A stretch of 24,000 bases of DNA from Nitrososphaerota archaeon. Its GTDB lineage: Archaea > Thermoproteota > Nitrososphaeria > Nitrososphaerales > Gagatemarchaeaceae. Positions 362 to 21,966 of the stretch are shown piece after piece. The stretch spans positions 5,791 through 29,790 of the forward strand of contig JACPTA010000048.1 in NCBI GenBank assembly GCA_016193005.1. Reading direction: 5' to 3'. Position numbers and translations under genes: made by a program. Position 1 is the stretch's first letter. Every line of letters starts with the position of its first letter. The notes beneath the pieces are model-generated. The model was given only the letters and a program-made list of their open reading frames with translations, ran no database searches and was not told the DNA's origin.

Positions 362-829
362 ATGAGATGGGTGACAAGAGAGAGGGCGAAGGTTGACAGA
401 ATTGCTTGCCCTTGGCTGATAAAGAAGTTCGTAGACAGGGAGGCTGAGTTTCTCTTCGTTCCTAAAGAGGAGGTGTTGGAGGTTGCGAAGGGGAAGAATG
501 CCATTGCCTTTGACGCTCCGGGGGCTGACCTCACGCATTACAAGGAGGATGGCCAGGATTACGTGAGCTTTGATGCCATCGTCCGCAGGTACGGTCTGAA
601 GGATAAGGCCCTGCTCGAACTGGCTAAGATTGTCCGTGGCGCTGACACAACAATACCAGGTCCGCCCCCTGAGTCGGCAGGGCTGGAAGCGGCTGCGACC
701 GGCTTCAGGGCAGTCGCAAAGGACGACTTCGAGAACATGCAGCTGCAATTCCCTCTCTACGACGCTCTCTACAATTACTGCCAGCTGAAGGTTCAGGGGT
801 CGGCGAGGCTCGAACACGCCGTTAGGTGA
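362..829 (+). CDS. ChrB C-terminal-domain-like protein (chromate resistance family), 155 aa
   Basis: ATG start. The N-terminal WVTRERAKVDRIACPWLIKKFVDREAEFLFVP resembles the hallmark DRxACPWLIxRFID block of the ChrB C-terminal (Chrome_Resist) domain. Recognised from memory, not searched. Confidence 0.55.
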   Translation: MRWVTRERAKVDRIACPWLIKKFVDREAEFLFVPKEEVLEVAKGKNAIAFDAPGADLTHYKEDGQDYVSFDAIVRRYGLKDKALLELAKIVRGADTTIPGPPPESAGLEAAATGFRAVAKDDFENMQLQFPLYDALYNYCQLKVQGSARLEHAVR

Positions 830-887
830 ATTGCGGACGGCAATTCTTATAATCTCAGGCTTACGGGCGGAGTAAAGAATTCAAGGC

Positions 888-1388
888 TTGTCGACCGAAT
901 TCAGACACCTCGTGAGGATAAGAGGGAAGGACCTCGAAGGTTCGAAGAAGCTAGTCGCAGCCTTGGCCGATTTGAAGGGCATCGGTGACAATTTCTCACA
1001 CATGCTGATTACTAACCTGGGGCTCGACCCGAAGATGAGGACCGGGTTTCTGTCGGAGGCACAGGTGAAGGAGATTGAGAGGTCCCTGCAGGACACCTCA
1101 TCGTTGAAGATTCCACAGTGGGCGTTCAACAGGAAGAAGGATCCAGAGACGGGGGAGACGAAGCACTTGATCGGGTCCGACCTGGACTTTACGGCGAAGA
1201 ACGACATCGAGGGAGAGAAGAACATCCAGAGCTGGAGGGGGATAAGACACTCGCTGGGGCTCAAGGTTAGAGGGCAGAGGACGAGGACGACGGGGAGGAA
1301 GGGACGCACGGTGGGTGTTCGGAAGACTGCCCTCGCTGCTGCTGCGGCGGCAGCGGCTGCCGCGGCCAAGGGCGAAGAGAAGAAGTGA
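888..1388 (+). CDS. rps13: 30S ribosomal protein S13 (uS13), with an unusual poly-Ala C-terminal tail
   Basis: STEFRHLVRIRGKDLEGSKKLVAALADLKGIG and GIRHSLGLKVRGQRTRTTGRKG are typical uS13 blocks. The start codon is TTG at 888. Confidence 0.92.
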   Translation: MSTEFRHLVRIRGKDLEGSKKLVAALADLKGIGDNFSHMLITNLGLDPKMRTGFLSEAQVKEIERSLQDTSSLKIPQWAFNRKKDPETGETKHLIGSDLDFTAKNDIEGEKNIQSWRGIRHSLGLKVRGQRTRTTGRKGRTVGVRKTALAAAAAAAAAAAKGEEKK

Positions 1389-1394
1389 GACTCG

Positions 1395-1910
1395 TTGGGA
1401 GATCCAAAGAGGCCGAGGAAGAAGTTCACAAAGCCGAAAAATCCTTGGCAGAGCGACCAGCTCGTTCAGGAGCTGTACCTCGTCGGCAACTATGGTCTGA
1501 GGAACAAGAGAGAGCTCTGGAAGGCGCAGACACAGTTGAGCGCGATAAGGAAGCAGGCGAGGAGGCTGCTCGCCGCTTCGGAGGAGGTGAGGCTGAGGGA
1601 GGAGAAGAAGCTCCTCGACAGTCTGAAGCGGAAGGGGCTAGTTGGCGAGGGCGTTACCCTCGATGACATCCTGAGCCTCAGTGTCGAGGACATGCTGGGA
1701 AGAAGACTTCAGAGCGTGGTATTCAGGAAGGGGCTGGCCGTCTCGCCTCTCCAGGCTAGGCAGCGCATCGTTCATGGTCACGTGAAGATCGGTGAACGGG
1801 TGATAGACAGGCCGGGATATTTGGTCACAAAGACAGACGAGGGACAGGTACAAGTTGTAGGTGGGATGCCCACGGAGCCTCCGAAGGAAGAGGCACCCAT
1901 AGCGAAGTGA
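1395..1910 (+). CDS. rps4: 30S ribosomal protein S4 (uS4)
   Basis: The canonical archaeal uS4 N-terminus (M)GDPKRPRKKFTKPKNPW begins exactly at TTG 1395. An S4 RNA-binding domain follows (RLQSVVFRKGLAVSPLQARQRIVHGHVKI). Confidence 0.92.
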   Translation: MGDPKRPRKKFTKPKNPWQSDQLVQELYLVGNYGLRNKRELWKAQTQLSAIRKQARRLLAASEEVRLREEKKLLDSLKRKGLVGEGVTLDDILSLSVEDMLGRRLQSVVFRKGLAVSPLQARQRIVHGHVKIGERVIDRPGYLVTKTDEGQVQVVGGMPTEPPKEEAPIAK

Positions 1911-1916
1911 TTCCAG

Positions 1917-1955
1917 ATGTCCGAAGAAGATGCCCTAAAGGATCGGTGGGGAATC
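1917..1955 (+). pseudogene. rps11: Orphaned original 5' end of rps11 (13 codons, MSEEDALKDRWGI), separated from the rest of the gene by the cassette
   Basis: The ATG lies 6 nt after the rps4 stop, which is operon-style spacing. The 13 codons parallel the N-terminus of the intact S11 ORF at 2926 ([13 protein letters not shown]). After 1955 the frame reads unrelated sequence and stops at 2028-2030. Confidence 0.7.
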
Positions 1956-2132
1956 CTACCTCATTCCCAAGATCCGCTCGATGACCGATGTTCCGTAGCC
2001 GTAGAGCTCGGAAAGCTTGCCAATCGATAGACCAGAATGATAGTACGACTTCCTGATCCTCCCTGCCACCTCGTCTGGAACGTCTACCCTCGTCGTGGCA
2101 TGAGCCCTGTCGAGCGAGAATTTATATTTCAA
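1956..2132 (-). CDS. Small helix-turn-helix protein (58 codons, TTG start), coupled to the LAGLIDADG ORF; could alternatively be a frameshifted C-terminal domain
   Basis: Below the track's length cut-off. My translation reads (M)KYKFSLDRAHATTRVDVPDEVAGRIRKSYYHSGLSIGKLSELYGYGTSVIERILGMR*. The segment SIGKLSELYGYGTSVIERIL looks like a classic HTH. TTG 2132..2130 lies 1 nt after the upstream stop codon (2136..2134). Confidence 0.4.
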   Translation of the reverse strand: MKYKFSLDRAHATTRVDVPDEVAGRIRKSYYHSGLSIGKLSELYGYGTSVIERILGMR

Positions 2133-2133
2133 C

Positions 2134-2673
2134 TTAATTCCTTCCGAGCGTGTAGGGCAGGCTGGAAGTTTTCAGCTTTCCCATCTTGTTGCCGATTTCA
2201 ACTTCATGATTAACTCTCGCTATTAACTCGTCTCCTGTGATTCTATTCTCAAGATACTCGACGACCCCTTTCAGTTCTGCTTTCTTCTTGAATGCGTGGG
2301 GTAGCATCTCCCTCGATGCCTTCAATACCCCCTGAACGTTACAAACCCTCAACTGCCATGCGGAGATCCCTCGTTTGCTCTTTCTCGCGGTGAGGTATCC
2401 AGCTCTCACACCATGACTCTCGAGAAAGTCCTTCACTGCTAACAATTGTTTATCCCAATTGTCGGTGAATCCAAGAGTGATTGTTACGACGAATTGTCTA
2501 ACCAGCTCATCGAGATTCCCGTCGCCATCCAGGTAACCAGCTAAGACAGACCAATTCTTGTAGCCGCTGTCTTGATCCCCTTGGGGATGTATGCATAGGT
2601 GGCCAATTTCCGAGGTTTGTATCTCGTCAGCTTGTTTCTCATGAACAGCTTCGTTCTGCGTGTCGACTGTCAA
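2134..2673 (-). CDS. LAGLIDADG-family homing endonuclease, single-motif (homodimer-type), 179 aa
   Basis: The motif WSVLAGYLDGDGN matches the LAGLIDADG consensus. Its size is similar to single-domain enzymes such as I-CreI. TTG is the only available start, and an in-frame stop lies at 2728-2730 upstream. The ORF is A/T-richer than its surroundings. Confidence 0.75.
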   Translation of the reverse strand: MTVDTQNEAVHEKQADEIQTSEIGHLCIHPQGDQDSGYKNWSVLAGYLDGDGNLDELVRQFVVTITLGFTDNWDKQLLAVKDFLESHGVRAGYLTARKSKRGISAWQLRVCNVQGVLKASREMLPHAFKKKAELKGVVEYLENRITGDELIARVNHEVEIGNKMGKLKTSSLPYTLGRN

Positions 2674-2883
2674 CGGAACAATACCCTCGTCCCCTATTTC
2701 TCCACCACTCTTTTCGAAGGAACATCCTCAGAACATGCCTCCTTCCTCTCCGTCTTGCAAGTCCAATAGGATGAAAGTCATGATTGTTTCGACCGTGATA
2801 CCTTTGGTCGCCTCACGAGTACAATGTTACTGAAAGGGGGTTGCCTGACGAAAGAGGTTTACCAACAATGAATTCGCAGAAGA

Positions 2884-2896
2884 TTTCATAAAGGAG
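2884..2896 (+). promoter_or_regulatory. TATA-like element (TTTCATAAAGGAG) upstream of the relocated rps11 start
   Basis: An A/T-rich TATA-like box lies about 35-40 nt upstream of TTG 2926, inside the cassette. This geometry is compatible with an archaeal promoter giving a short leader. Based on sequence pattern only. Confidence 0.25.
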
Positions 2897-2925
2897 CACT
2901 CTGACGGGTTCGCAGCTGTGATAGC

Positions 2926-3333
2926 TTGAGTGCCGATGAAGATTCTTTAAGAGATCGTTGGGGTATCGTCCACATCTACAGCAGCTATAACAACACGATA
3001 GTCCACATAACCGACCTGACTGGCGCTGAGACAATATCATTCTCGTCCGGGGGAAGACACGTCAAGGCCGACCGTTTTGAATCGTCTCCCTACGCAGCAA
3101 TGCGATCCGCTTCCGCTGCGGGTGAAGTTGCCAAGGCCAAGGGAATAACGGCGGTGCACATCAAGGTCAGGGCTGTGGGAGGTACGGGTCCTCGCACTCC
3201 CGGTCCTGGGGCCCAGGCGGCGATCAGGGCCATCGCTAGGTCCGGTTTCAGGATTGGAAGGATAGAGGACGTTACTCCGATACCGCACGACACCACCAGG
3301 AAGAAGGGCGGCAGAAGGGGAAGGAGAGCTTAA
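2926..3333 (+). CDS. rps11: 30S ribosomal protein S11 (uS11); the first ~14 codons are supplied by the cassette
   Basis: [33 protein letters not shown] and [30 protein letters not shown] are typical uS11 blocks. The start is TTG at 2926, with an in-frame stop at 2902-2904 upstream. Confidence 0.9.
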
Positions 3334-4331
3334 AGGCGCGCTCTGTGGAGAACTTCCACACTATCGACCTTTCCGTCTCCATCGAGATCAACTCCGCGCA
3401 GGACGATGGCGAAATCCTTGCCACCGTACGGTTCGAGAACCTGCTCCGCCAGGTTCGTCACGCCAATTATTGCGGCCTTCGTGGCCGCTCCCGTCAGCCC
3501 GGCAGCTATCGTGCAAACGTTCGAGCTGCTCCACGGATTTCGAACCTTCGCAACTAGCGCATCGAGCTCGGAGAAGTACCTCTTCCCGGTGTCGTCGACG
3601 ATCGCTCCCCAAAAATTCTCTTCGGAGAACCGTACGGGGAGGTGCGGGTTCAGCTCCGCCGAGATGGTGTTCGTTCGTGGCCCGCCGACGATCACCAGAT
3701 TGGATCCTTCGAGCTTCTCGCTCTTTATGTCGACCTCGAGCTTGACCGGAAAGACCCTCGGAAGGTTAACGAACTGGCCGAGTGCGAATCCGAGCTGGAC
3801 CGCATAATGGCCATCCCTGCTCTGCGTTCTGTTGGGTCCGTGGGGCTCGGGCGATCCGACAACGATCCATCCGTTGAACTGCCCTCCTTGAAGAAACTCC
3901 TTGAAGAACGCCCGGAGGGACTCGGAACGCGTCCCCGTGAAGAGTGAGGGCAGCGCCTCTCCGCCTACGCCGAACTCGACCGCGTAGCCATCAGTGGTAA
4001 GAGCGTACTTGTTCGCCCTTCCCCCACGGATCTCCTCGTGCCCGACTTTCTTGATGAGACCAGCCCTTTCAAGCCTGTGCATGTGGTAGTAGACTGTCTG
4101 GTGATACCTGTGAAGCTTCCGGGCAACGTTCGACGGGTGATCGGGTCCGTTCGAAAGCGCAGAGAGGATCGCGTGACCAAGCGCGCTGAACGCAGCGCTA
4201 AATGATTCAGGACTGTCCGAAGCAATAACCTTCTTCGCACGCAGCTCCTTCGAGGACGGGTCTACCAGAAGCCTCCTTCTGACCACAACGAGACCGCTGC
4301 CGACCATTATTAAATTGTTTTGCATGGTCAT
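3330..4331 (-). CDS. Winged-HTH (ArsR/TrmB-like) transcriptional regulator with an uncharacterised ~200-aa C-terminal domain, 333 aa
   Basis: [32 protein letters not shown] is an ArsR-type wHTH. I do not recognise the C-terminal two thirds. ATG start. Confidence 0.6.
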
Positions 4332-4371
4332 TCCTGTCGAACTCGTCTCGAGAGTCCCAGCCGTGTGTCAC

Positions 4372-4389
4372 TGCAAACTCGAGTTTGCA
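4372..4389. promoter_or_regulatory. Perfect 18-bp palindrome TGCAAACTCGAGTTTGCA in the divergent regulator/glmS intergenic region (candidate operator)
   Basis: The sequence equals its own reverse complement. It lies 41 nt from the regulator start codon and 60 nt from the glmS ATG. Confidence 0.45.
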
Positions 4390-4448
4390 TTGTTTTCATT
4401 CGTTAGTAACGGAGATTATTAGCACGACGACCTTGCGGGAATGCGTTA

Positions 4449-6215
4449 ATGTGCGGAATAATCGCCTGCATCGCTGACGACAGAGCAGCTCCCATTCTCC
4501 TGGAGGGATTGAAGAGAGTAGAGTACAGGGGCTACGACTCAGCGGGGGTAGCCACCATCGGGAGAGATGGGATACTAGTCAAGAAGGACGTGGGCAAGAT
4601 CGCGCAGATCGAGGCACGGCAGAAACTATCTTTGCTGGATGGGAGAATCGGAGTGGCTCACACGAGATGGGCGACTCACGGAGGAGTGACGAAGCGCAAC
4701 GCCCACCCCCACACATCATGCAATGAACTGGTAGCGATTGCGCACAATGGAATCATCAAGAATTACCTCAAACTCAAGAAAGAGCTCGAGCTAAAGGGGC
4801 ACAAGTTCAAGAGCGAGACGGATAGCGAAGTCATTGCACACCTTCTCGAAGAAGAGTACAAAAGATTGAGAAACCCGACGCGGGCCACGGCGTCGGCGGC
4901 AAGGAAGCTGGAGGGGCAATATGCCTTCGTAGCGCTCTTCCAGGGCAGAGGAGACCTTCTGACGGGGGCGAGGAACGATGCCCCACTCTTGGTCGGGTTG
5001 TCGGAGAGGAAGAGATTCCTGGCGAGTGATGTCCTCGCGTTCATCGAGCACACAGACAGGGTGATCTTCATGGACAATCTGGAGGTCGTCACGGTGACCG
5101 ACAAGGATGTGAGAATCAGCGACCTGAGCGGTAAGGAGGTCAGGAAGGAGGTGACTCAGATCGCATGGGAGCTGGCTGACGTTAGCAAGCTCGATTACGC
5201 GCACTACACCCTGAAGGAGATTGAAGAGCAACCATCCACCCTCCACAGAGCGCTGATTCAGGAGGAGGAGAAGCTCGCCTCGTTCGTCGAGGTCCTGAAG
5301 AGCTCAGATTCCGTCTTCTTGACGGGCGCAGGCTCGAGCTTTCACGCCGCGCTGGTCCTCAAGCACAGGTTGAACATCGAAGCGAGAATTCGGGCCGATG
5401 CCGTGGTTGCGGGGGAGTTCGCGAGCCAGAGCCATTTCATGAATAGGAACTCGACAGTCGTAGCCATCAGTCAGAGCGGCGAGACTGCAGATGTGCTCGA
5501 AGCGGTGAAGGTTGCACGCTCGAAAGGCGCGAGAGTGCTCTCGATCGTGAACGCGGTGGGTTCATCACTCGTCTCGGCGGGAGATCACGCGCTCCATCTC
5601 AACTGCGGGCCTGAGGTCGGGGTTGCAGCCACAAAGAGCTTCACGGCACAGCTCGCGATTATCGGATTGGTACTCGACAGTCTGACTGGCAAGGAGACAT
5701 CGCTCAATGGTGAGAGTCTGGCGCGCCGCGTGAAGGAGACCTTGGCCGTGAGGGAGAGGGCCCGCGCCCTTGCAAAGAGATACAGGCATAGGCCTGACTT
5801 TTACTTCATCGGGAGGAGCGTCCACTATCCGATAGCCCTAGAGGGGGCACTCAAGTTGAAGGAGCTCTCGTACATTCATGCAGAGGGGATGCCCGCGAGC
5901 GAACTAAAGCACGGGACGCTGGCTCTGATAGAGGAGGGGACACCGGTTGTGGTACTCAACCCTGGCGACGAGACATACGACGACACGCTCTCCAACGCGC
6001 ACGAGCTCAAGGCAAGAGGTGCGGAGGTGATCGGGATAACAGACCGGGCGAACAAGCTCTACACCCACACAATCTCTGTCCCCCATGTGGCGGAGAGCGT
6101 GATGCCCATCCTGGAAGTGATTCCTCTCCAATTTCTCGCGTATTACACCGCTTTGGAGCGGAAGAACAATCCGGACTACCCGAGGAACCTGGCGAAATCG
6201 GTAACCGTAAAATAA
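4449..6215 (+). CDS. glmS: Glutamine--fructose-6-phosphate aminotransferase (isomerising)
   Basis: The N-terminal MCGI carries the nucleophilic Cys. A GATase class II domain is present (RGYDSAGVA, HTRWATHG). Two SIS domains follow (ISQSGETADV). The C-terminal end is KSVTVK. Confidence 0.95.
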   Translation: MCGIIACIADDRAAPILLEGLKRVEYRGYDSAGVATIGRDGILVKKDVGKIAQIEARQKLSLLDGRIGVAHTRWATHGGVTKRNAHPHTSCNELVAIAHNGIIKNYLKLKKELELKGHKFKSETDSEVIAHLLEEEYKRLRNPTRATASAARKLEGQYAFVALFQGRGDLLTGARNDAPLLVGLSERKRFLASDVLAFIEHTDRVIFMDNLEVVTVTDKDVRISDLSGKEVRKEVTQIAWELADVSKLDYAHYTLKEIEEQPSTLHRALIQEEEKLASFVEVLKSSDSVFLTGAGSSFHAALVLKHRLNIEARIRADAVVAGEFASQSHFMNRNSTVVAISQSGETADVLEAVKVARSKGARVLSIVNAVGSSLVSAGDHALHLNCGPEVGVAATKSFTAQLAIIGLVLDSLTGKETSLNGESLARRVKETLAVRERARALAKRYRHRPDFYFIGRSVHYPIALEGALKLKELSYIHAEGMPASELKHGTLALIEEGTPVVVLNPGDETYDDTLSNAHELKARGAEVIGITDRANKLYTHTISVPHVAESVMPILEVIPLQFLAYYTALERKNNPDYPRNLAKSVTVK

Positions 6216-8539: not shown

Positions 8540-9526
8540 ATGAAAGATTTCAGAGTCTATGTTTCGACTAACGAGGTCCCGGCTCAGGCCTTGGAAATCG
8601 TGGGGTCAATCGCAAAGGTGAAAGTCTACGAAGGGAAAGCGGCTCCTCCGAGGGGGACACTCCTCAAGGAGGTGCAAGAGGTGGATGGGCTGTTCTGCAT
8701 ACTCACGGAGAAGGTCGACGGAGAGCTGTTAGACCGGGCGAAGAAGCTCAAGATTGTTGCGAACATGGCAGTCGGATACGACAACATAGACCTGGCCGAG
8801 GCAACGAAGAGGAAGGTGATGGTTACCAACACACCTGGAGTTCTGACGGAGACCGTGGCCGACGCTACGATGGCGCTCATGCTCGCGGTCGCGAGGAGGG
8901 TGGTGGAGGCAGACAGGTACGTCAGGGAGGGGGGATGGAAGCTCAGGTGGAGTCCGATGATGATGGTCGGGAGCGACGTCTATGGGAAGACTCTCGGGAT
9001 CTATGGCCTGGGGAGGATAGGCGCGGCGGTGGCGAAGAGAGCAACGGGTTTTGGGATGAAGCTTCTCTACTATGACGCCGTCAGAAACGAGGGCCTCGAG
9101 AGGGGGTATGGCATCGAGTACGTCACCTTCGACCGCCTTCTCAGAGAGAGCGATTTTCTCAGCGTTCACGTTCCGCTTCTCCCTGAGACAAAGAAGAGCG
9201 TCGGCGCGAGAGAGTTCGCCCTGATGAAGAGGAGCGCCTACTTAATCAACACGGCGAGGGGCAGCGTTGTGGACGAAGCGGCGTTGATCGTGGCATTGAA
9301 GGACGGAAGGATAGCGGGAGCGGGACTGGACGTATTCGAGGATGAGCCCGTCAACCCGAAGAACGGACTGCTCAAGATGGAGAACGTCGTTCTCGCCCCT
9401 CACATGGCGAGCGGAAGCATAGAGACTAGGACCGCGATGGCAGTAATGGCTGCCAGGAACATCGTGGCTGCATTGAAAGGCGAAGCCCCTCCCGACCTGC
9501 TGAACAAGGAGGTCCTGAACAGGTGA
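8540..9526 (+). CDS. gyaR: D-isomer-specific 2-hydroxyacid dehydrogenase (glyoxylate/hydroxypyruvate reductase-like)
   Basis: GIYGLGRIGAAVAKRATGFGM is an NAD-binding Rossmann motif. NTARGSVVDEAAL and the catalytic HMASGS region are also present. The track ORF starts at TTG 8537, immediately followed by ATG 8540, which I prefer. Confidence 0.85.
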   Translation: MKDFRVYVSTNEVPAQALEIVGSIAKVKVYEGKAAPPRGTLLKEVQEVDGLFCILTEKVDGELLDRAKKLKIVANMAVGYDNIDLAEATKRKVMVTNTPGVLTETVADATMALMLAVARRVVEADRYVREGGWKLRWSPMMMVGSDVYGKTLGIYGLGRIGAAVAKRATGFGMKLLYYDAVRNEGLERGYGIEYVTFDRLLRESDFLSVHVPLLPETKKSVGAREFALMKRSAYLINTARGSVVDEAALIVALKDGRIAGAGLDVFEDEPVNPKNGLLKMENVVLAPHMASGSIETRTAMAVMAARNIVAALKGEAPPDLLNKEVLNR

Positions 9527-14046: not shown

Positions 14047-15048
14047 TCAGCCTGACTGCTCGGCCTGCACCGGGGACGCCTGCTTCTTCCAGAGCCTCGG
14101 GTAGGTCCCCTGCTCCATGATCACCCTCTGTGTGGCGAATGCTATACCTTTCTTCGCCTCCACAATCTCCTCGCTCTTCAGCTTGGCCTCGCCTATGGCC
14201 ACAAGCTCGCCCTTTCCCGTCAGGAAGACCACTGTCTCGCCGGGGACGATTCCACTAGAGAGAGCAAGAATCCCAGGCACGGCAAGCATCGCCCCGTGGC
14301 AGACGGCCTCCACAGCTGAGTCCCGAATTATCACGCGCCTGACATCGCTCACAGAGCCCTCAACGGGCCTGATAGCGGCCCTCAGGAACGAGTCGTCGCC
14401 ATTCTTGTATTTGAAGAGCGCATCGTTCAGCGCATGGAGGGTAACGAAGCTTCCCTCTTCCTTGAGCGAACCGACCTTGGTCCTCCGCAACTCAACCATC
14501 GTGGCGCCGACCTCCAGCACCTCCCCCATATCGTAGACCAACTTCCGGATATACGTACCGGCCTGGCAGAGGCAACGGATGAGGAATAGGTTTCCTTCCT
14601 GCTCGAGGACCTCCATCTCGTAAATCCTTCTTGTCCTCACCTCCCTCCTGACGGAGGAGCGTTGGGGCGGCCTTTGGTAAATCTCGTCCGTGAACTCCCT
14701 AATCACGCCGTCGACTTTCTCCCTGGGGACCGACGAGTGTATCCTCATCACTGCTATGTACTCCTTGGGGAACATCAGCAAGAGCGTCAGCGCCTTCGTC
14801 GCGTGCCCGAGCCCGATGGGGAGCAACCCGGACACGAGCGGATCGAGAGTTCCACTGTGCCCAGCCTTCTCTATCCCGAGCATCCTTCTGACCCATGAGA
14901 CGACTTCGTGGCTCGTCGGCCCCCTCGGCTTGTCGAGGGGGATTAGCCCGTATTTCATCAGCTGCGCAACAGTCCGGTTCGCTGGCTCGACACCGTGGGC
15001 GGGGTCGCTTGACTCTTCGTCTATCTGAATTAGGTCCTGCGTGCTCAT
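14047..15048 (-). CDS. cbf5: tRNA/rRNA pseudouridine synthase Cbf5 (archaeal TruB, H/ACA RNP catalytic subunit) with C-terminal PUA domain
   Basis: The GHSGTLDPLVSGLLPIGLGHATK catalytic motif is present. The length and C-terminal PUA-like region (VIIRDSAVEAVCHGAMLAVPGI) also fit. Confidence 0.93.
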   Translation of the reverse strand: MSTQDLIQIDEESSDPAHGVEPANRTVAQLMKYGLIPLDKPRGPTSHEVVSWVRRMLGIEKAGHSGTLDPLVSGLLPIGLGHATKALTLLLMFPKEYIAVMRIHSSVPREKVDGVIREFTDEIYQRPPQRSSVRREVRTRRIYEMEVLEQEGNLFLIRCLCQAGTYIRKLVYDMGEVLEVGATMVELRRTKVGSLKEEGSFVTLHALNDALFKYKNGDDSFLRAAIRPVEGSVSDVRRVIIRDSAVEAVCHGAMLAVPGILALSSGIVPGETVVFLTGKGELVAIGEAKLKSEEIVEAKKGIAFATQRVIMEQGTYPRLWKKQASPVQAEQSG

Positions 15049-15614
15049 CTCTTCCTTGTCTTCACGTACCTTAGGACCTCTTTTCCCACTTCCTCAACGC
15101 TCATGCCGTCGGTTCCAACAACCAGGTCGAAGGGAGTGAGGTCCTTCCCGAATTCGATCTTGTATATCTTCTTGTAGATCTTGTAGTTTTCAGCATCTCT
15201 TACCGCGATGACTCTCTTGCACTCTTCGATTCCCTTCTTGTCCCTCTTCGCCATCCGCTTGGCCCTGCTCTCGGCTGAGCCGGAGAGCCACACCTTGATC
15301 CCCTTCTTCGAGAGCCAAGGCAAGGGATAGCTCGTTATCACGACGTTGCCGCCCGCCGCCTTCTTGAGCAGCCGTCTGTCGACATCCTGGTCGAACTTCG
15401 GCGACTTCTTCCTCTCTTCCAAGAACCTTATCCCCTCTTTCGTATCCCACCAGTCCTCTCCGCTTGTCGTCACTCCGCGCTCCTCAGCCATCTCCTTCAG
15501 GATGTCGCCTCCCCCGAACACGCGCAGATGCAGCTTCTCGGCTATTATTCTGGCTATCGTCGTCTTCCCGACAGCTGGAAGACCCGATACGATGACGGCT
15601 TCCAACCTGCGCAC
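15045..15614 (-). CDS. cmk: Cytidylate kinase, archaeal type
   Basis: It has the P-loop VSGLPAVGKTT. Its size is 189 aa. It occupies the conserved position between DUF106 and cbf5. The start is GTG, and there is a 4-nt overlap with cbf5. Confidence 0.75.
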   Translation of the reverse strand: MRRLEAVIVSGLPAVGKTTIARIIAEKLHLRVFGGGDILKEMAEERGVTTSGEDWWDTKEGIRFLEERKKSPKFDQDVDRRLLKKAAGGNVVITSYPLPWLSKKGIKVWLSGSAESRAKRMAKRDKKGIEECKRVIAVRDAENYKIYKKIYKIEFGKDLTPFDLVVGTDGMSVEEVGKEVLRYVKTRKR

Positions 15615-15617
15615 CGA

Positions 15618-16049
15618 CTACGGGACGGTTCCAAGCACTTTGCCGAACATCGTGTTGAAGGAGAGGGATGAGATGAAGTACCACCAGAGGAGAGCCAGAG
15701 ATCCGTCGTCGGAGACGATGTAGGGAATCGGAAGCGGAGAGAACGCCACCGGCGCGTAGTAGCCTCCAACCAGCTCGGCCATGAGGTAATAGAGGACGAT
15801 GAATGGAACCCAAGTCACCATGAAGACCTTGAACCTCCCGGAGGAAGCCTTGAGCCTCATCTTGTCCATCTGAGGCTTTCGCTTCCTGAGCTTCTCTTCC
15901 CGCTGCTTGTCTTTCTTTAGGACGGCGTCCTTGAGTTCCTTGTCGAATTCGGCTATCTCCTGCTTGATCCTCTTCTCCCTCTTCAGGTCCACCAAGAGAC
16001 GAGTAGCGGTGTGAGAAGCAAGTCCGAGTCCTATCGCTGTCAGCGACAC
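15618..16049 (-). CDS. DUF106 membrane protein (archaeal YidC/Oxa1/EMC3-like insertase homologue)
   Basis: A lysine-rich coiled-coil segment (KREKRIKQEIAEFDKELKDAVLKKDKQREEKLRKRK) is followed by hydrophobic helices. It sits in the conserved position after adk. The GTG start is inferred, and the frame stays open upstream into the adk 3' end. Confidence 0.65.
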   Translation of the reverse strand: MSLTAIGLGLASHTATRLLVDLKREKRIKQEIAEFDKELKDAVLKKDKQREEKLRKRKPQMDKMRLKASSGRFKVFMVTWVPFIVLYYLMAELVGGYYAPVAFSPLPIPYIVSDDGSLALLWWYFISSLSFNTMFGKVLGTVP

Positions 16050-16078
16050 AATCAGCGTCGACTCGGGGATCGGGTAGC

Positions 16079-16651
16079 CTAAGATGCGCCACCTCCCATT
16101 GCGGTCATGATGGCCTCGGCTGCCTCCTCTGCCCTTCCCTCCACGTTCCTTACGATGAGCATAGGGGCCCCGCTGACGAGCGAGGCAGAGGCGAGAAGGG
16201 TCTTGGCCAAGTCGAGCTCGTAGTCTATCTCCTCCCTGGTAATAACATCTCTGTAGCGCGTCGTATCTTTCATTCTTCTTGAGAGTATCTCGTCGGGCGT
16301 CGCCTCCACCAGCACCAGATGGGTGGGCTTTAGCGCCTTTATCACCTCTAGCGGTAGCCCCGGCCAGAATCCCTCGTTGGTGCGGATGAACAGATGCGTG
16401 TCGACGAGGGTGTATCTCCCCTTGCTCTTAGAGAGCTTCTGAGCTGCAATCTTCTGCAGCCTCCTCTGCTTCTCGACCGGCATCTTCCTCATCTCGTCCC
16501 TGTGCTTCGCCCACCTCAGCCTCTTTGCCTCCTCGAACATGACCGTGCCGAAGACTCGGACGGAGGTGCCATCGAGTCTCTTCAAGACGTGGTCAATCAC
16601 GGTGCTCTTTCCTACGCCGGCTATCCCCACCACGACGACCCTGACGCCCAT
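16079..16651 (-). CDS. adkA: Adenylate kinase, archaeal type
   Basis: It has the VVGIAGVGKST P-loop and is 190 aa. It occupies the conserved position downstream of secY. Confidence 0.88.
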   Translation of the reverse strand: MGVRVVVVGIAGVGKSTVIDHVLKRLDGTSVRVFGTVMFEEAKRLRWAKHRDEMRKMPVEKQRRLQKIAAQKLSKSKGRYTLVDTHLFIRTNEGFWPGLPLEVIKALKPTHLVLVEATPDEILSRRMKDTTRYRDVITREEIDYELDLAKTLLASASLVSGAPMLIVRNVEGRAEEAAEAIMTAMGGGAS

Positions 16652-16657
16652 GTCAAT

Positions 16658-18070
16658 TCAGCTCCTCCCGAGCACTCCGGCGAGCCTCGGGTAGAGGTCC
16701 TCAATCTGTTCCTTGACGAGCAGCTGGTAGAACTGGAGGATGATGTCGACCATGAGCAGTATTCCTATCCCTGTCCCGAAGACGCCGAACAGGTCCGAGA
16801 CGGATGCAATCAGCCCGATGAGTATGCCGCCTATGACCGTGATAGGAGGTATGTACCGGTTCAGAACCTGTTCCAGGGAGAGGCCCGCTCTCCTGAAACC
16901 TGGAACCTGAACGTTGGCACTGATAAGGTTCTTCGCGACAGCCCTCGGCGAGAGCCCTCCTATCTCAACCCATATTCTCGCGAAGAGGACAGCGAAGAGA
17001 ACGATGAACCCGACGTAGACCACCGCGTGGAGGGGATCGGCAAGAGTTTGTATTACTCCCTGCGGGGGTGAGATGTAGTAGACGAGTCCTCCGGTTGGGT
17101 TGTTCTCACTGTCGTAGGTGGCAATGTATTTCATCCACGCGCTGCTCCCGCCACCGAAGTTATTGTGGAAGAGCCGGGAGAAGAAGGCTATGTTGGCAGT
17201 CAGCGCCGATACGAGGATAACGGGAATGTTCGAGACGTAGAGTAGCTTTATCGGGTAGACACCCTGGAAACCCCTGTACTTCACCGAAGTGATGGGCACC
17301 TCCACCCTGAAACCCTCTATGTAGATGATGAAGAGAATCACAGCGACCGTCATGATGAAGGTGAAGATGCTTGGGAATCCGAACTCGCGAAGGGCCATGC
17401 TGGGAACCGTTCCCGCGAAGAAGGAACTTATCATCGCCGGAACGAAACCGAATATCTCCGCAGGGGCACCCTCGCTTGCGGTGACCGGGAACGGTGAGAA
17501 GGTGAACCATGTCACGGTTTGAGCCACGCCGGCAAGGATGAACAGGCTAATCCCGCTACCTACCCCCCACCCCTTTTGGATCATCTCGTCCAGCAAGAGG
17601 ACAACGGCGCTGGCGAAGAAGAGCTGGACGAAGATGACGAACGATTGGCTTCCTTGGAGAACCCCGAGCGCACCTCCAAGTATGTAGGCACCGGACTCGA
17701 CGCCGATTACGATCAAGGTCAGCAGCTTGGTCGCAGAGCCGAAGAGAGCTCTGTCCTTGGGGTTGGTGAAGTCGAGCTTGATTATCTCGCTGCCCTTGAG
17801 GAGCTGTAGAATCAGGCCTGCAGTCACTATCGGACCGATGCCGAGCTCCATGAGGGTCCCCTGCGTCGACGCGAAGATTATTCTGAGAAAGGCGAACTGA
17901 TCTTTCTGGCCCCCGTATTGGTAGAGTGGAGTAATCGACATCACGAGGTAGCAGACAAGGGCGAGAGTCGTCCAGATGAACTTCTCACTCAGGCCCGGCT
18001 TCCTCTGAGGCTTCGGAACCTCTGGTAGAACGGTTGCAACGGTCTTGACGAAATTTCGGAGTGAGGCCAT
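16658..18070 (-). CDS. secY: Preprotein translocase subunit SecY
   Basis: 470 aa and multi-TM. Characteristic blocks are FASTQGTLMELGIGPIVTAGLILQLL and the C-terminal GILLMVDIILQ. Confidence 0.95.
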   Translation of the reverse strand: MASLRNFVKTVATVLPEVPKPQRKPGLSEKFIWTTLALVCYLVMSITPLYQYGGQKDQFAFLRIIFASTQGTLMELGIGPIVTAGLILQLLKGSEIIKLDFTNPKDRALFGSATKLLTLIVIGVESGAYILGGALGVLQGSQSFVIFVQLFFASAVVLLLDEMIQKGWGVGSGISLFILAGVAQTVTWFTFSPFPVTASEGAPAEIFGFVPAMISSFFAGTVPSMALREFGFPSIFTFIMTVAVILFIIYIEGFRVEVPITSVKYRGFQGVYPIKLLYVSNIPVILVSALTANIAFFSRLFHNNFGGGSSAWMKYIATYDSENNPTGGLVYYISPPQGVIQTLADPLHAVVYVGFIVLFAVLFARIWVEIGGLSPRAVAKNLISANVQVPGFRRAGLSLEQVLNRYIPPITVIGGILIGLIASVSDLFGVFGTGIGILLMVDIILQFYQLLVKEQIEDLYPRLAGVLGRS

Positions 18071-18087
18071 GTCCTGAACTCGCGCGG

Positions 18088-18498
18088 CTAGCTCTCTATC
18101 CTTCCGCCTGCCTTCTCTATCTTGGACTGTGCCCTCTTGGTGAAGGAGTCTACCTTGACGACGTAAGCTCCACCAACGCTTCCGGAGCCGAGAAGCTTCT
18201 CCACGCCCATCGCCGTGAGGTCAAGGGTCACAGGCCCTTTGGATTTCGGTGTGGAGAGTCCATCGAGGTCACCGACGTTGACCCACTTGTCTATCTTGTC
18301 GTAATACCGTGGCGGTCTGAAGGGGTCCCTCCCGAAGTGGTCGGGGTCGAATTTGACAAGCCATGACCACTTGTGCTTGTGGAGGCCCGCGTTGCCGTGC
18401 CCTCCCTGCTTCCCGGAATGTCTGTGCTGCCCGACCTGCCCGTAGCCGTGCGTCCTTGACCCTCTCAGCCGTCTCACCTTCCTTAGTCGCGTCGGCAT
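18088..18498 (-). CDS. rpl15: 50S ribosomal protein L15 (uL15)
   Basis: MPTRLRKVRRLRGSRTHGYGQVGQHRHSGKQGGHGNAG is the typical N-terminus. Confidence 0.93.
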   Translation of the reverse strand: MPTRLRKVRRLRGSRTHGYGQVGQHRHSGKQGGHGNAGLHKHKWSWLVKFDPDHFGRDPFRPPRYYDKIDKWVNVGDLDGLSTPKSKGPVTLDLTAMGVEKLLGSGSVGGAYVVKVDSFTKRAQSKIEKAGGRIES

Positions 18499-18963
18499 CT
18501 AGATCATCCTCTTTATGATGCCAGGAAGTTCTGGGTTCTCCCCAAGTATCCCGCCCTGCCCGTACTGCCTCCTTGACGAGCGTTTGAACCCACCCCGCGG
18601 CGGCGAGAGAGCAAAGTACGGCCTCAACCTCTTGAGTGACGAGTATCTCACGCCCTCCTTGATTATCTTTGAGGCGAGATCCTCATAACTCTTGTATCCG
18701 AGGCTCTTCAGCCCAGCGCTGTCAAGCTTCTTCCTCATGCTGACCCTTGCCCGTTGCTTCAGGAGCGAGGCGAGCAGCTCATGGTCAACGGGTGCCCATG
18801 CGACGTAGTCCTTACAGAGCTTGAGCGTGCCAACGGTCGTCGCGTCGTCAGGTACAACCGTAGCGGAGAACCTCTTGCCGATGCAGAGCTCTTCGATAGC
18901 ACGTCTCGTCCCCATTGGAACGTTTATCAGACCGTGGAGGTTCACGACCAAGAGGTTGGGCAT
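18499..18963 (-). CDS. rpl30: 50S ribosomal protein L30 (uL30)
   Basis: LLVVNLHGLINVPMGTRRAIEELCIGKRFSATVV is present. It occupies the conserved position between S5 and L15. Confidence 0.9.
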   Translation of the reverse strand: MPNLLVVNLHGLINVPMGTRRAIEELCIGKRFSATVVPDDATTVGTLKLCKDYVAWAPVDHELLASLLKQRARVSMRKKLDSAGLKSLGYKSYEDLASKIIKEGVRYSSLKRLRPYFALSPPRGGFKRSSRRQYGQGGILGENPELPGIIKRMI

Positions 18964-18972
18964 GGGCGATAC

Positions 18973-19593
18973 CTACACGTTCAACCCGTGGGCCTTCTTG
19001 AATGCATCGTAGACTGCGTTCGCAAGCGACGACATGGTGTTGGTGGAACCGAATGTTCTCACCCAAACGTCCTTCACTCCTGCAAGCGCAAGGAGGTTCT
19101 TCAAAGCTGGACCTGCAACGATTCCTAGTGCACGAGGGCCTGGAATCAGTTCGACGAGCACGCTACCGGCCTTCCCCTTGATCCTGTAGGGGACCGAGTG
19201 CCTCCTTCCGCACCTGCACTCCCAGCTCCCGCAGCCAAGCTTGACTGGGATGATGTTGAGGAGCGCATCGTAGGTCGCCTTGTCTATGGAGGACTTCATC
19301 TGAGGGGCCTTCCCCTTGCCGACACCGAACCAACCGTCGCCATTGCCCACCGCGACGACTGAACCGAACCTCGTCAGCTCTCCCGCGTCGGTCTGCTTCT
19401 GTACTATTCCGACGCCGACGACCTCCGATTTCAGGTCGGGGAGGAGTGTCTTTACAATCTCAGGCTCCCTGACCTTGTGCCCGAGCTGGAAGATCTCCTC
19501 TAGGGAGGTTATCTTCCCCTCCGCGACCATCTTGCCGAGCTTCGTCTTCGGAACCCACGGCTCCTGCCTCTCTTCTCTTGCTTGTTGAGCCAA
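18973..19593 (-). CDS. rps5: 30S ribosomal protein S5 (uS5)
   Basis: EPWVPKTKLGKMVAEGKITSLEEI and VVAVGNGDGWFGVGKGKA are present. The TTG start lies immediately after the rpl18 stop. Confidence 0.93.
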   Translation of the reverse strand: MAQQAREERQEPWVPKTKLGKMVAEGKITSLEEIFQLGHKVREPEIVKTLLPDLKSEVVGVGIVQKQTDAGELTRFGSVVAVGNGDGWFGVGKGKAPQMKSSIDKATYDALLNIIPVKLGCGSWECRCGRRHSVPYRIKGKAGSVLVELIPGPRALGIVAGPALKNLLALAGVKDVWVRTFGSTNTMSSLANAVYDAFKKAHGLNV

Positions 19594-20172
19594 CTATCTC
19601 CCTCCTACGATTGACGCCCTCACCTTCTCGTAGTGGGCGGGGTAGTCCTCGGGCTTGAGCCCAAGCTTCAGGAGGGCCGAGAATCGCCTCGTGTACTCCT
19701 CCTTGTTCTCCTTCAGAAGAGAGGAGGCGTACGTCGATATCGCTTCACCCTTCAGCCTCTTTTCACTGGGAAAGGCGCTCTCGGAGATTGGCACCTTCAA
19801 ACCGGCATCGCCGACACCCTTCACGAAGGCGGCGAGGCGAGAACCCTTCACGAAGGGGAGCACCCCGGTGTAAAGGAAAGCCTCCTTCACTCCTTTCTCG
19901 ACTGCCTTCTTTCCAGCAAGGAGCCCCAGCAGGTAACAGGCAGGAGTATTCTTGAGAGAACCCTTCCACCCAAGTTTCCTGAGCGCTCTCGAGTGAACGG
20001 CCGATATCACTGAATCGCCAGTCACGTTCGGCTTGATGAACTGGGCCGAGACGTTCTTGTCTGCAAGCCTCACGGTTAGGAGAATGCCGCGTGAGGCGAC
20101 CTCCTTCTTCCTCGCCCTGTAGTTCGTCAGCCCCATCCTCCTTCGCCGGGGGACCGGCACGAATTTTGTCAA
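19594..20172 (-). CDS. rpl18: 50S ribosomal protein L18 (uL18)
   Basis: PVPRRRRMGLTNYRARKK is the typical N-terminus. TTG start. Confidence 0.9.
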   Translation of the reverse strand: MTKFVPVPRRRRMGLTNYRARKKEVASRGILLTVRLADKNVSAQFIKPNVTGDSVISAVHSRALRKLGWKGSLKNTPACYLLGLLAGKKAVEKGVKEAFLYTGVLPFVKGSRLAAFVKGVGDAGLKVPISESAFPSEKRLKGEAISTYASSLLKENKEEYTRRFSALLKLGLKPEDYPAHYEKVRASIVGGR

Positions 20173-20173
20173 A

Positions 20174-20605
20174 CTACCTTCGACCCTCCTTCATCATCGC
20201 AAAGAGCTGCTTGATGTCCCTGACCTGCCCGCCCTTGACCTGTCTGTAGAGCTTCCAGTAGAGCTCCTTGCTCACCTGACCTCTGTCTCTCGCCACCTTC
20301 AGCCTCCACCTTAGCGCCCTGACCTTGTGGACCCACGCCTGCTTCCTCGGCGTCCTCGACTTTAGTCCACCCTTTAATGACCCGTGTCCTCTGGCTCTCC
20401 TGGCTCTTGCTCTGGTTCTCGCGCGTCCTCTCGAAACTCCTCTCACTGGTGCAATCTTGATGGCACCCGTCCCGATCAGGCCCCTTATCGTGCTCCTGGT
20501 GATCGCGTCTTGGATGAGGTCCTCGGCCTCTGGGTCGAAGATGATTCTCTCCTCGCCTACTCCGAGGATGGCCGCCGCAAGTCTTCTCTTACTTCTTAGG
20601 TTCAA
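20174..20605 (-). CDS. rpl19e: 50S ribosomal protein L19e (eL19)
   Basis: NLRSKRRLAAAILGVGEERIIFDPE is present. TTG start. Confidence 0.9.
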   Translation of the reverse strand: MNLRSKRRLAAAILGVGEERIIFDPEAEDLIQDAITRSTIRGLIGTGAIKIAPVRGVSRGRARTRARARRARGHGSLKGGLKSRTPRKQAWVHKVRALRWRLKVARDRGQVSKELYWKLYRQVKGGQVRDIKQLFAMMKEGRR

Positions 20606-21029
20606 CCACTCTCAAGCCTCTCGGGTTCACGATTACGAGCCCCAATTCCTTCGCCCTCTTCAGAATCTCAGCCCTCTTCCTCGCTCCGACTGTTCGCCCA
20701 ATCCTCGCGACATCCTTGCCGGGAACGAGGTCAGCCAGCTCGTGCTGGTTGTGGACGAGAAATTCAGCGCGTCCGCTCGGATGAAAGAACCTTGCTCCCA
20801 CCGGCCCCCTGTAACCTACCTTGACCCTTCTGGGCCAGCCCTTCTTGGACTTTCTGACCTTGTTGTCCAGCCCTTTGGGCTTTCTCCAATTTGGTCTCAA
20901 CCTGGAATACCTCCAGCTCTCAGGACGGACAAACTCGGGTCGCCGCTCCGCGATGGCCTTCCTCAACTGGAGGAGTCTCTTTAGCTCTGAGCTCGTATCC
21001 TTTTCACTCCGGACCTGTTTCTTTGGCAA
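20589..21029 (-). CDS. rpl32e: 50S ribosomal protein L32e (eL32)
   Basis: RPEFVRPESWRYSRLRPNWRKPKGLDNKVR is present. TTG start, with a 17-nt overlap with rpl19e. Confidence 0.9.
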   Translation of the reverse strand: MPKKQVRSEKDTSSELKRLLQLRKAIAERRPEFVRPESWRYSRLRPNWRKPKGLDNKVRKSKKGWPRRVKVGYRGPVGARFFHPSGRAEFLVHNQHELADLVPGKDVARIGRTVGARKRAEILKRAKELGLVIVNPRGLRVVEPKK

Positions 21030-21036
21030 TCTTAGC

Positions 21037-21582
21037 TCACGCTCTTATCTTCTCGTAGACGTAGATCCCATCGAGAAAGATGCGCTGGTCCTTGCGCTTT
21101 ACCTTCGTGGCCTGCTCCAAGTTGGCGGCTGTCTGACCAACGTCCTCGCCCGAAACTCCTTTGATGATGATGTCATCCCCTTCGATGGCAACCTTGCAAT
21201 CTCCGAGGATCTTCGACGTCCTCGAACTCCGCTCACCCATGAAGTTCTCTATGACTATGGTGTCTCCCTTCACTCTCACCGTGACGGGGAAGTGCGCGAA
21301 TACCACCTTGAGCTTGTAAGTGAACCCCTTCGTTACTCCGTGAATCATGTTCCTGATCAGCGATGTGGCTGTGTTGGCCGTCACGACGTCCCTCTTCTTC
21401 TTTGTGTACGGGGTTATCTGGACTTTGCTCTTCTCGACCTTCACGTTCACAGGGATCCTCCAGAGGTTCTTTGCGACTGACCCTAGCGGACCAGTAATCT
21501 TGAGAGTCCTACCTTCCAACGTGCCCTTCACTCCCTCGGGCAGGTCTAGCTCGTGGAGATGTTCGTCAGTAGATGAAACCAA
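21037..21582 (-). CDS. rpl6: 50S ribosomal protein L6 (uL6)
   Basis: It shows the two-repeat L6 pattern (LKITGPLGSVAKNL, GFTYKLKVVFAHFPVTVRVKGD). The TTG start is preceded by GGGAGGGAGG. Confidence 0.9.
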   Translation of the reverse strand: MVSSTDEHLHELDLPEGVKGTLEGRTLKITGPLGSVAKNLWRIPVNVKVEKSKVQITPYTKKKRDVVTANTATSLIRNMIHGVTKGFTYKLKVVFAHFPVTVRVKGDTIVIENFMGERSSRTSKILGDCKVAIEGDDIIIKGVSGEDVGQTAANLEQATKVKRKDQRIFLDGIYVYEKIRA

Positions 21583-21958: not shown

Positions 21959-21966
21959 CTTCTCAC

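Follow-up and report, generated by a model that had tools for sequence, protein, structure and literature searches.

A probable free-standing homing-endonuclease cassette with a replacement rps11 start at the rps4-rps11 junction of a non-marine Nitrososphaeria chromosome

The genes of the ribosomal proteins S4 and S11, rps4 and rps11, are interrupted at their junction by an insert of about 1 kb in a 24,000-nucleotide stretch of a Nitrososphaerota archaeon chromosome (contig JACPTA010000048.1; this whole stretch is called the window hereafter, and its first letter is position 1). We consider it probable that positions 1956-2967 of the window represent a free-standing homing-endonuclease cassette, that is, a selfish element lodged at the rps4-rps11 junction in the chromosome of a non-marine member of the Nitrososphaeria (Thaumarchaeota), which brings with it a replacement head for the rps11 gene that it interrupts. 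The cassette is composed of an I-CreI-like LAGLIDADG gene with a helix-turn-helix (HTH) domain, placed antisense to rps11, of a TATA-like motif and of the replacement rps11 head. Textbook homing endonucleases are found either inside introns or inteins, where the insertion is harmless, or as free-standing genes between phage genes. Six other lineages (L001, L002, L003, L014, L090, and L092) harbor a cassette at the same site in states that range from intact to nearly deleted, and occupancy amounts to about 7 of about 90 lineages, spread over three host clades as delineated by S4 identity.

The organization of the locus is summarized in Table 1. The first copy of the rps11 head, referred to below as the stub, reads ATG TCC GAA GAA GAT GCC CTA AAG GAT CGG TGG GGA ATC (1917-1955); its frame then enters the antisense sequence of the endonuclease gene and reaches a stop at 2028-2030, yielding an open reading frame (ORF) of 37 amino acids (aa). 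A preliminary description of this DNA had reported this chimeric frame behind the rps4 stop as well as a second, TTG-started head fused to the S11 core, and both are exactly where it had placed them: the downstream head, TTG AGT GCC GAT GAA GAT TCT TTA AGA GAT CGT TGG GGT ATC (2926-2967), continues into the S11 core to give a complete protein of 135 aa that matches PF00411 (Ribosomal_S11) at 4e-44. Its count of codons ending in A or T, 10 of 14 in the downstream head and 6 of 13 in the upstream one, was correct, and its estimates of about 43% G+C for 2161-2280 and about 57% for 1501-1560 agree with the recomputed values of 43.3% and 56.7%. Over the whole insert (1956-2925) the G+C content is 48.6% versus 57.7-58.2% in the flanking genes. 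The stop codon of a 58-aa minus-strand ORF with an HTH domain (CTA on the plus strand, 1956-1958) abuts the stub directly, and 252 nucleotides (nt) separate the antisense endonuclease gene from rps11. Since L172 and L173, assemblies made independently from this species (99.4-99.7% identical), have the same structure, an assembly artefact is excluded.

Archaeal LAGLIDADG genes typically sit in introns or inteins, and group I introns with LAGLIDADG genes have been reported in Thaumarchaeota (PMC6125680). One may therefore ask whether rps11 contains a self-splicing insert, either a group I or group II intron or an intein, the second start being an annotation illusion. The endonuclease gene is nevertheless antisense to rps11, the stub frame stops at 2028, the downstream head is a second copy of the stub and no continuation of it, and no Rfam family was found at E<=1 in 1700-3200. 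A self-splicing insert is therefore hardly credible at this locus.

The preliminary description had noted that the first 13-14 codons of rps11 occur twice, and this is not a chance similarity. A nucleotide profile of the native head, built from 79 uninterrupted rps11 5' ends over 36 positions, matches the stub of the window with E=8e-6 up to profile position 35 of 36, as it matches those of L001 (1e-5) and L014 (4e-6). The form and the spacing of the stub are those of 74 or more uninterrupted loci, and the N-termini of S11 orthologues, for which the native consensus is M-S-E-E-E-x-L-x-D-K/R-W-G-V, correspond to the stub. With the same profile no stub was found in L002, L092, and L090; in L003 and L092 the stop of the endonuclease gene lies 5 nt past the rps4 stop. 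The stub hence appears as a variable by-product of the insertion, three other lineages having the cassette directly after the rps4 stop and being stub-free. The case of L014 is instructive with regard to its origin: the spacer and stub of this locus are identical at 34 of 40 positions (85%) to the native head of the empty locus L115, which equals the identity of the rps11 cores (298/360), and therefore the stub is derived from the host. The functional head of L014 shares with L115 only 12 of its last 24 nt (50%).

The replacement head belongs to another type. A TTG start with a 14-codon head is present in all six occupied or decayed loci (6/6), the codon pair CGT TGG in five of the six versus 6 of 80 empty loci, and codon 2 is AGT or AGC in four of the six; these features co-occur with the endonuclease gene. 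The preliminary description spoke of a recoded 5' end: the codons do differ, and what we see in place of a deliberate synonymous recoding is a foreign head type (TTG, 14 codons, CGT TGG) tied to the endonuclease gene. Just to the right of the junction, codon 15 specifies Cys (TGC/TGT) in 53 of 80 empty loci and Val (GTN) in 5 of 6 occupied ones, a contrast which could reflect either a target preference or a co-conversion tract. It is worth mentioning that a large clade possesses S11 proteins of 170-194 aa (P0155-P0221; L024 3862-4000) whose N-terminus is extended by an acidic stretch of about 45 aa, with TTGQITPSLEEDESLKEKWAV directly before VHIY. The replacement head of L002 (ALDEDSLKERWAV) resembles the stretch just after this extension, and this resemblance hints at the extension clade as a possible origin of the replacement-head type.

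Two heads around a 1-kb insert could also be understood as the target-site duplication of a transposon or integrase element, or as a local tandem duplication followed by the capture of an unrelated ORF, given that the insert lies between two imperfect direct repeats, each about 40 nt long. We regard such a scenario as very improbable: the two copies are unequal (13 versus 14 codons), begin with different start codons and show mismatches at about 30% of positions (15 of 21 agree when aligned in the register of the repeat scan); the stub goes with the host phylogeny, and the features of the functional head recur at other occupied loci; the scans of the window found no transposase, integrase or terminal inverted repeat; and three lineages have the cassette and are stub-free.

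A comparison of loci bears on the mobility of the cassette. A genome scan by S11 followed by tblastn mapping (nearest clade with S11 88-91% identical) and a metagenome scan by S4, which returned 76 loci with both rps4 and rps11, revealed that the uninterrupted state largely prevails. Among the metagenomic loci, 74 of 76 are empty, with the rps4 stop, a gap of 3-27 nt and rps11, while L092 is occupied and L090 decayed. In genomes of the GTDB, L014 is occupied and L018, L025, L030, L036, and L040 are empty, rps11 beginning 6-8 nt past the rps4 stop; L024 and L065 are without endonuclease gene and have longer gaps, that of L024 encoding an N-terminal extension. The empty site takes the form TGA, about 5 nt, ATG TCN GAA GAA GAR GTN CTN GCN GAC AAG TGG GGN GTN, TGC or GTC, and CAC ATC TAC. 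Even at 89% S4 identity the state can differ, L014 being occupied and L115 empty. Empty sites of the form anticipated in the preliminary description are thus abundant, making up 74 of the 76 metagenomic loci and the majority of the genome loci, and the approximately 1-kb spacer is not shared by all relatives, most related loci being empty. All close homologues of the endonuclease gene (L001, L002, L003, L014, and L092) lie antisense between rps4 and rps11. The gene is intact in L001, L014 (3096-3833, minus strand), and L092 (4594-5298, minus strand), frameshifted in the window species, fragmented in L002 and L003, and almost deleted in L090, where a gap of 251 nt retains only a fragment encoding GKYFDGDGK in front of a TTG-started rps11. 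The presence and absence of the cassette are polymorphic at one homologous site among relatives, and the series from intact to deleted copies is the pattern expected of the invasion, decay, and loss cycle of homing endonucleases.

The protein encoded by the cassette had been assigned to the LAGLIDADG enzymes from its motif. The minus-strand ORF of 179 aa with LAGYLDGDG between the two heads stands as described (2134-2673); the coupled HTH ORF does exist (1956-2132, 58 aa), but it is not a separate gene and corresponds to the C-terminal domain of the same protein, shifted out of frame. P0002, the homologue of 245 aa encoded by L001, covers both window ORFs in a single frame, the 58-aa ORF aligning to its residues 188-245, and in intact homologues one ORF of about 235-246 aa encodes the whole protein. 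Where these encode P-[YF]-T-R-S-E-G, the window reads TAC ACG C/TCG GAA at about 2148-2149. As judged from these alignments, a deletion of 2 nt has divided what was one gene into the two ORFs; this deletion is probably real, as it is found in the window, L172, and L173 (three assemblies). With its HTH domain detached from the nuclease domain, the copy of the window appears to be past its prime.

The affiliation of the enzyme is distant from characterized families. The 179-aa and 58-aa ORFs gave no match in Pfam, NCBIfam, and PHROGs, apart from a PHROGs "endonuclease" at E=0.33; for the 179-aa ORF there was no Pfam match at E<=1, and for P0002 none at E<=0.01. A word-indexed protein search found only four relatives, while an exhaustive HMMER search retrieved 248 cluster representatives at E<=1e-3 (clustering at 50%), 77 of which were used for the family alignment and profile. 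In this alignment D56 and K137 are invariant, and conservation reaches 90% or more at Y45, W48, F55, G57, D58, and G59; PF14528 is matched by 37 of the 77 homologues (best 1.8e-9) and PF00961 by 5, and the C-termini of family members match HTH_23, HTH_7, and HTH_38. Over its whole core the family profile matches an I-CreI-derived chain (8e-7), I-CvuI (2e-4), and chains of I-CreI and I-MsoI, within a range of 8e-7 to 1e-2; D20 of I-CreI aligns to the near-invariant D58 and K98 to the invariant K137. The structure of the intact homologue P0002 was modeled with AlphaFold from the 77-sequence alignment, giving a predicted local distance difference test (pLDDT) of 88.2 and a predicted template modeling score (pTM) of 0.77, where an alignment of six sequences had given only a pLDDT of 41.7. 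The model displays an alpha-beta-beta-alpha-beta-beta-alpha core (H48-58, E59-65, E70-78, H81-93, E102-106, E109-117, and H120-130), and LAGLIDADG enzymes make up all of the top 50 Foldseek matches in the PDB (E about 1e-6, probability 1.0, target-normalized TM about 0.6), the best being I-CreI, I-CvuI, I-MsoI, and the archaeal I-Vdi141I. The LAGLIDADG identity proposed in the preliminary description, which Pfam does not recover from the window ORF alone, is therefore borne out by the family profile and by the I-CreI-like model. Altogether, the protein is predicted to be a divergent single-motif LAGLIDADG nuclease with a C-terminal HTH domain, presumably active as a homodimer.

Has the cassette moved between hosts? 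The window and L001 are close relatives in which the S4 and S11 proteins are 94% identical and the flanking DNA 91-93%; over the insert the endonuclease gene retains only about 70% identity and the non-coding part about 45%, with abrupt transitions at about 1915-1930 and about 2950-2967. At four-fold degenerate sites the flanks differ at 26 of 117 positions (22%) and the endonuclease gene at 50 of 72 (69%; Fisher p=1.5e-10). A selection on codon usage behind the low divergence of the flanks was considered and rejected: in the pair L092-L003, used as a control for codon-bias constraint on ribosomal-protein genes, the four-fold divergence reaches 0.38 in rps13 and 0.35 in rps4, similar to glmS (0.41), with 0.36 in the HTH gene. 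It follows from this control that synonymous rates of ribosomal-protein genes are ordinary in this group and, from the contrast, that the window and L001 cassettes share a far deeper ancestor than their hosts. This indicates an independent invasion or replacement in the two lineages, and horizontal exchange.

One could object that the gene is an ancient, fixed, and domesticated LAGLIDADG-HTH regulator of the ribosomal-protein or RNA-polymerase cluster, inherited vertically and repeatedly lost. The layout of a LAGLIDADG domain followed by a C-terminal HTH domain recalls WhiA, a divergent promoter region adjoins rps11, and the pair L092-L003 fits vertical descent, the value of 0.47 in the endonuclease gene not being significantly different from 0.38 in the flanks (p=0.16). 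A regulator of this kind is difficult to reconcile with the conservation of the catalytic Asp and Lys across the family, with an occupancy of so few lineages over three host clades, with frameshifted, truncated, and nearly deleted copies, with family members at unrelated loci, and with an endonuclease gene that is synonymously saturated between hosts whose S4 is 94% identical. We thus deem domestication unlikely and favor a selfish homing cassette.

Table 1 Features of the interrupted rps4-rps11 junction and loci of other family members
Feature	Locus	Position	Strand	Remarks
rps13 (S13)	window	888-1388	+	first gene of the rps13-rps4-rps11 block; PF00416, 6e-39
rps4 (S4)	window	1395-1910	+	ends with TGA; PF01479 and PF00163; left flank and left homology region; 91% nt identity with L001, four-fold sites 24% different
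Stub, native 13-codon rps11 head (MSEEDALKDRWGI)	window	1917-1955	+	6 nt past the rps4 stop
C-terminal HTH domain of the endonuclease	window	1956-2132	-	58-aa ORF split off by frameshift
LAGLIDADG nuclease domain	window	2134-2673	-	179-aa ORF; motif LAGYLDGDG, Lys-rich FKKKAELK helix
2-nt deletion splitting the endonuclease gene	window	about 2148-2149	-	frame comparison with intact homologues
Divergent intergenic region, endonuclease-gene start to new rps11 start	window	2674-2925		about 45% identity between window and L001
Conserved motif CGCAGAAGATTTCATAAAGGA	window	2875-2895	+	putative cassette-borne rps11 promoter
Replacement rps11 head, TTG and 13 codons	window	2926-2967	+	head type confined to occupied loci
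Native rps11 core to stop	window	2968-3333	+	PF00411; right flank and right homology region; 93% nt identity with L001 overall, 100% over 2967-3006
Family paralogue (220 aa, full length)	L002	4616-5278	-	37-42% identical to rps11-site copies; between enolase and rps2
P0010	L164			180 nt upstream of rpS26e
P0015	L165			adjoins JAB and proteasome cluster
P0016	L168			between RNase-like gene and methylase; phosphoribosyl pyrophosphate synthetase also nearby
P0009	L170			adjoins cytidine triphosphate (CTP)-transferase-like gene

In five occupied loci the non-coding sequence before the TTG is unalignable except for a motif, AGAAGATTTCTTAAAGGAG, at a distance of 33-36 nt from this start; in the window its TATA-like part TTTCATAAA (2884-2892) lies 33 nt upstream of the TTG. 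The motif co-occurs with the endonuclease gene, and we regard it as a putative archaeal promoter of rps11 that travels with the cassette.

From these observations the following course of events may be proposed. The enzyme, presumably as a homodimer, would cut the uninterrupted rps11 near codons 11-14, within GAY AAG TGG GGN GTN followed by GTC or TGC and CAC ATC TAC, and the break in this essential gene would be repaired from an occupied allele. An exchange on the right side, within the highly conserved S11 core, would copy in the endonuclease gene, the motif, and the donor head together. On the left side, the homology could be provided by rps4, so that the replacement is clean (L092 and L003); alternatively, the part of the recipient's head that precedes the break could persist as a stub (the window, L001, and L014). 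Thereafter rps11 would be expressed from the start codon and probably the promoter of the cassette, free of translational coupling to rps4, and the native head might still be translated as the chimeric peptide of 37 codons. The intact target would have disappeared, the stub being fused to the 3' end of the endonuclease gene and the new head differing in the presumed left half-site, and a donor stub would offer a left homology arm reaching right up to the break. As rps11 is essential and has no other functional start, the head and the motif would be retained after the decay of the nuclease, as L090 illustrates. Regarding the position of the break, the three stubs terminate close together, at 30, 31, and 35 of the 36 profile positions, hence within 6 nt of each other. 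A scan for dyad symmetry over 95 centers in 76 empty loci peaks at -1 relative to codon 15, a weak maximum of 5.1 of 11 against a background of about 2.7, and the stubs end within 5 nt of this strongest pseudo-palindrome center. Both are suggestive of a break near codons 11-14. In the window, the reconstructed empty junction would join GATCGGTGGGGAATC directly to GTCCACATCTAC.

Several points weigh against a homing cassette and should be considered together. The window copy is frameshifted and may be inactive. The target site and the cut position are deduced from the stub ends and a weak palindrome score. The pair L092-L003 appears to fit plain vertical descent, so that transfer would not be frequent, and a scan of viral contigs with the family alignment returned one weak relative (20% identity) and no transfer vector. 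No empty allele was found in the narrow clade formed by the window and L001, the nearest empty loci having about 70% S4 identity; an S11 protein search for a closer one yielded mainly other head types, including the clade with the extension of about 45 aa. The putative promoter motif (2875-2895) resembles rps11 codons 3-9, with 17 of 21 nt identical when compared with 1922-1942 and 2934-2954, and the in-frame translations upstream of the TTG in several loci, among them L002 (IGDFLKGYFAACG and a stop) and L092 (TEDFLRRLNWACK and a stop), look like a decayed third S11 head; the native-head profile did not detect the motif as a third copy (best E=2.6), and the resemblance is either due to chance or the trace of a former head that came to serve as a TATA box. 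Finally, the new head of L001 differs from the window stub at only 2 of 21 nt beside the junction, and immunity through divergence of the head is therefore not obvious.

The frameshift of the window copy and the doubt about the immunity of the L001 head would also suit a passive spread, in which the segment moves by ordinary homologous recombination after DNA uptake and the nuclease is a dead passenger or has another target, all the more as the flanks are among the most conserved genes and ease recombination. Such passive recombination is improbable in our eyes, if less so for the copy of the window: three intact copies keep the catalytic residues, the ends of three stubs within 6 nt point to a defined break position, and without drive one would hardly expect the spread of an insertion by which an essential gene loses its coupling. 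Spread by homing therefore remains the reading that we prefer.

The endonuclease of the rps11 site is not alone. In L002, a full-length paralogue (Table 1) is located directly upstream of rps2, its stop 3 nt from the rps2 TTG, and the start of rps2 may represent a second target of the gene-start kind. Other members of the LAGLIDADG-HTH family are likewise free-standing and scattered beside archaeal housekeeping genes; no further one was found in the 24-kb window. Matches to the family also occur in two large proteins: P0051 (882 aa) has a single family core at residues 675-813 and no Pfam match, and P0139 (1689 aa) contains 16 short stretches matching the motif region of the family. It is tempting to hypothesize that these genes form an undescribed chromosomal LAGLIDADG-HTH family of soil and peat Nitrososphaeria (about 250 representatives at 50% identity) that invades the starts of essential housekeeping genes by means of a portable promoter, start codon, and first codons, a generalization that we put forward tentatively and for which the odds are somewhat short of even.

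The surroundings of the locus deserve a brief description. At 14047-23368 (minus strand) the window contains an ordinary archaeal ribosomal-protein cluster extending from S4e to L19e-L18-S5-L30-L15-SecY-adenylate kinase-cmk-truB/Cbf5. In the window clade and the main empty clade, the ChrB_C-rps13-rps4-rps11 block (window 362-6215) has the inverse orientation with respect to the HTH regulator, glmS, and rpoD, and the other arrangement (glmS in the reverse orientation, then HTH, rps13, rps4, rps11, and rpoD in the forward one) occurs in clade B and outgroups. The endonuclease gene was discarded as the cause of this inversion, the arrangement being common to more than 46 empty loci. In L092, an insertion of 1.29 kb (2190-3386, minus strand) without counterpart in the 96%-related L003 encodes a TnpB/Cas12f-like protein of 398 aa (PF07282, 3.8e-13) and constitutes an insertion sequence element between the HTH regulator gene and rps13. 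In L002, an ORF of 146 aa without Pfam match (8982-9422, plus strand) lies antisense between rps11 and rpoD, a junction that is normally tight.

If the proposed course of events is correct, the rps11 cassette would exemplify, in a cellular chromosome, a third solution for homing endonucleases: to interrupt an essential coupled gene and to repair it with a new head and probably a promoter. Under the tentative generalization made above for the family, it would represent the first cellular, i.e., neither organellar nor phage, case of intronless homing with replacement of a gene end. It would also provide a route by which N-termini of ribosomal proteins and their regulation are exchanged between archaeal lineages, and hence for the rewiring of an operon, rps11 being uncoupled from rps13-rps4, through the horizontal exchange of parts of core informational genes. 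The head and promoter would be locked in as essential after the decay of the nuclease, and the stub may serve as a left homology arm for further homing. Finally, compact I-CreI-like enzymes that possess an HTH domain and a candidate target might be of interest for meganuclease engineering.

How does this arrangement compare with known systems? Intronless homing in phages involves free-standing endonuclease genes such as SegA-G and MobE of T4 and F-CphI (PMC2988022, PMC2790892, PMC6083498). In both situations a free-standing endonuclease gene is placed between conserved genes, and its spread is attributed to the repair of double-strand breaks, in which markers on either side are co-converted; at L092 and L003, which have no stub, the arrangement looks exactly like that of the phages. 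The phage enzymes are of the GIY-YIG, HNH or EndoVII type whereas ours is a LAGLIDADG protein; they are not known to replace a gene start, and their setting is mixed phage infection in place of a cellular chromosome. Among LAGLIDADG enzymes, I-CreI, I-CvuI, I-MsoI, and I-Vdi141I likewise have one motif and the conserved catalytic Asp and Lys98 equivalent; they are homodimeric, encoded in group I or archaeal introns of ribosomal RNA genes, and without a C-terminal HTH domain. The identity of the window protein to this group is only 15-21%, and the window protein alone remains below the Pfam LAGLIDADG thresholds.

LAGLIDADG genes have also been found inserted in rps3 of fungal mitochondria and as rps3/LAGLIDADG fusions (PMC10448965). 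There too the coding region of a ribosomal protein is invaded and its expression remains possible, but these are in-frame fusions within an intron-encoded rps3, without a separate promoter and start module (PMC10448965). Integrative elements that target transfer RNA genes share with the cassette the principle of carrying a replacement for the displaced part of the target gene; they use a tyrosine integrase and att recombination, and neither an integrase nor an att-like identical repeat was found here.

In the literature searched, no free-standing LAGLIDADG gene is described in an archaeal ribosomal-protein operon. The preliminary description knew of no such architecture in an archaeal ribosomal-protein gene, and this holds for the literature searched, except that a mirror-image precedent does exist in fungal mitochondria (PMC3630166). 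The mobile endonuclease ORFs (mORFs) of fungal mitochondria insert in atp6, atp9, cox2, and nad3 and bring a foreign C-terminal end, while the native C-terminus is left downstream and remains close to that of relatives (PMC3630166); the cases include atp6 of Allomyces macrogynus and atp6, atp9, cox2, and nad3 of Glomus sp. (PMC3630166, citing Paquin et al. 1994). By analogy, these mORFs carrying replacement 3' gene ends are the closest precedent for the rps11 cassette. In both, a LAGLIDADG ORF (LAGLIDADG or GIY-YIG in mORFs) resides in a protein-coding gene without intron or intein, a diverged duplicate of the displaced gene end becomes the functional end, the native remnant stays closest to the sequence of relatives (here the stub of L014, 85% versus L115), and the hybrid genes are evidence of horizontal transfer. 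The cassette differs in that the 5' end is replaced, so that a start codon and probably a promoter are also needed from the cassette; in that the endonuclease gene is antisense and separately expressed, whereas mORFs are usually in phase with the host gene; in its target, a ribosomal-protein gene of a translationally coupled operon; and in its setting, an archaeal chromosome instead of an organelle. The rps11 cassette would accordingly extend the replacement of gene ends by homing endonucleases from fungal mitochondria to archaea, and from 3' ends to 5' ends.

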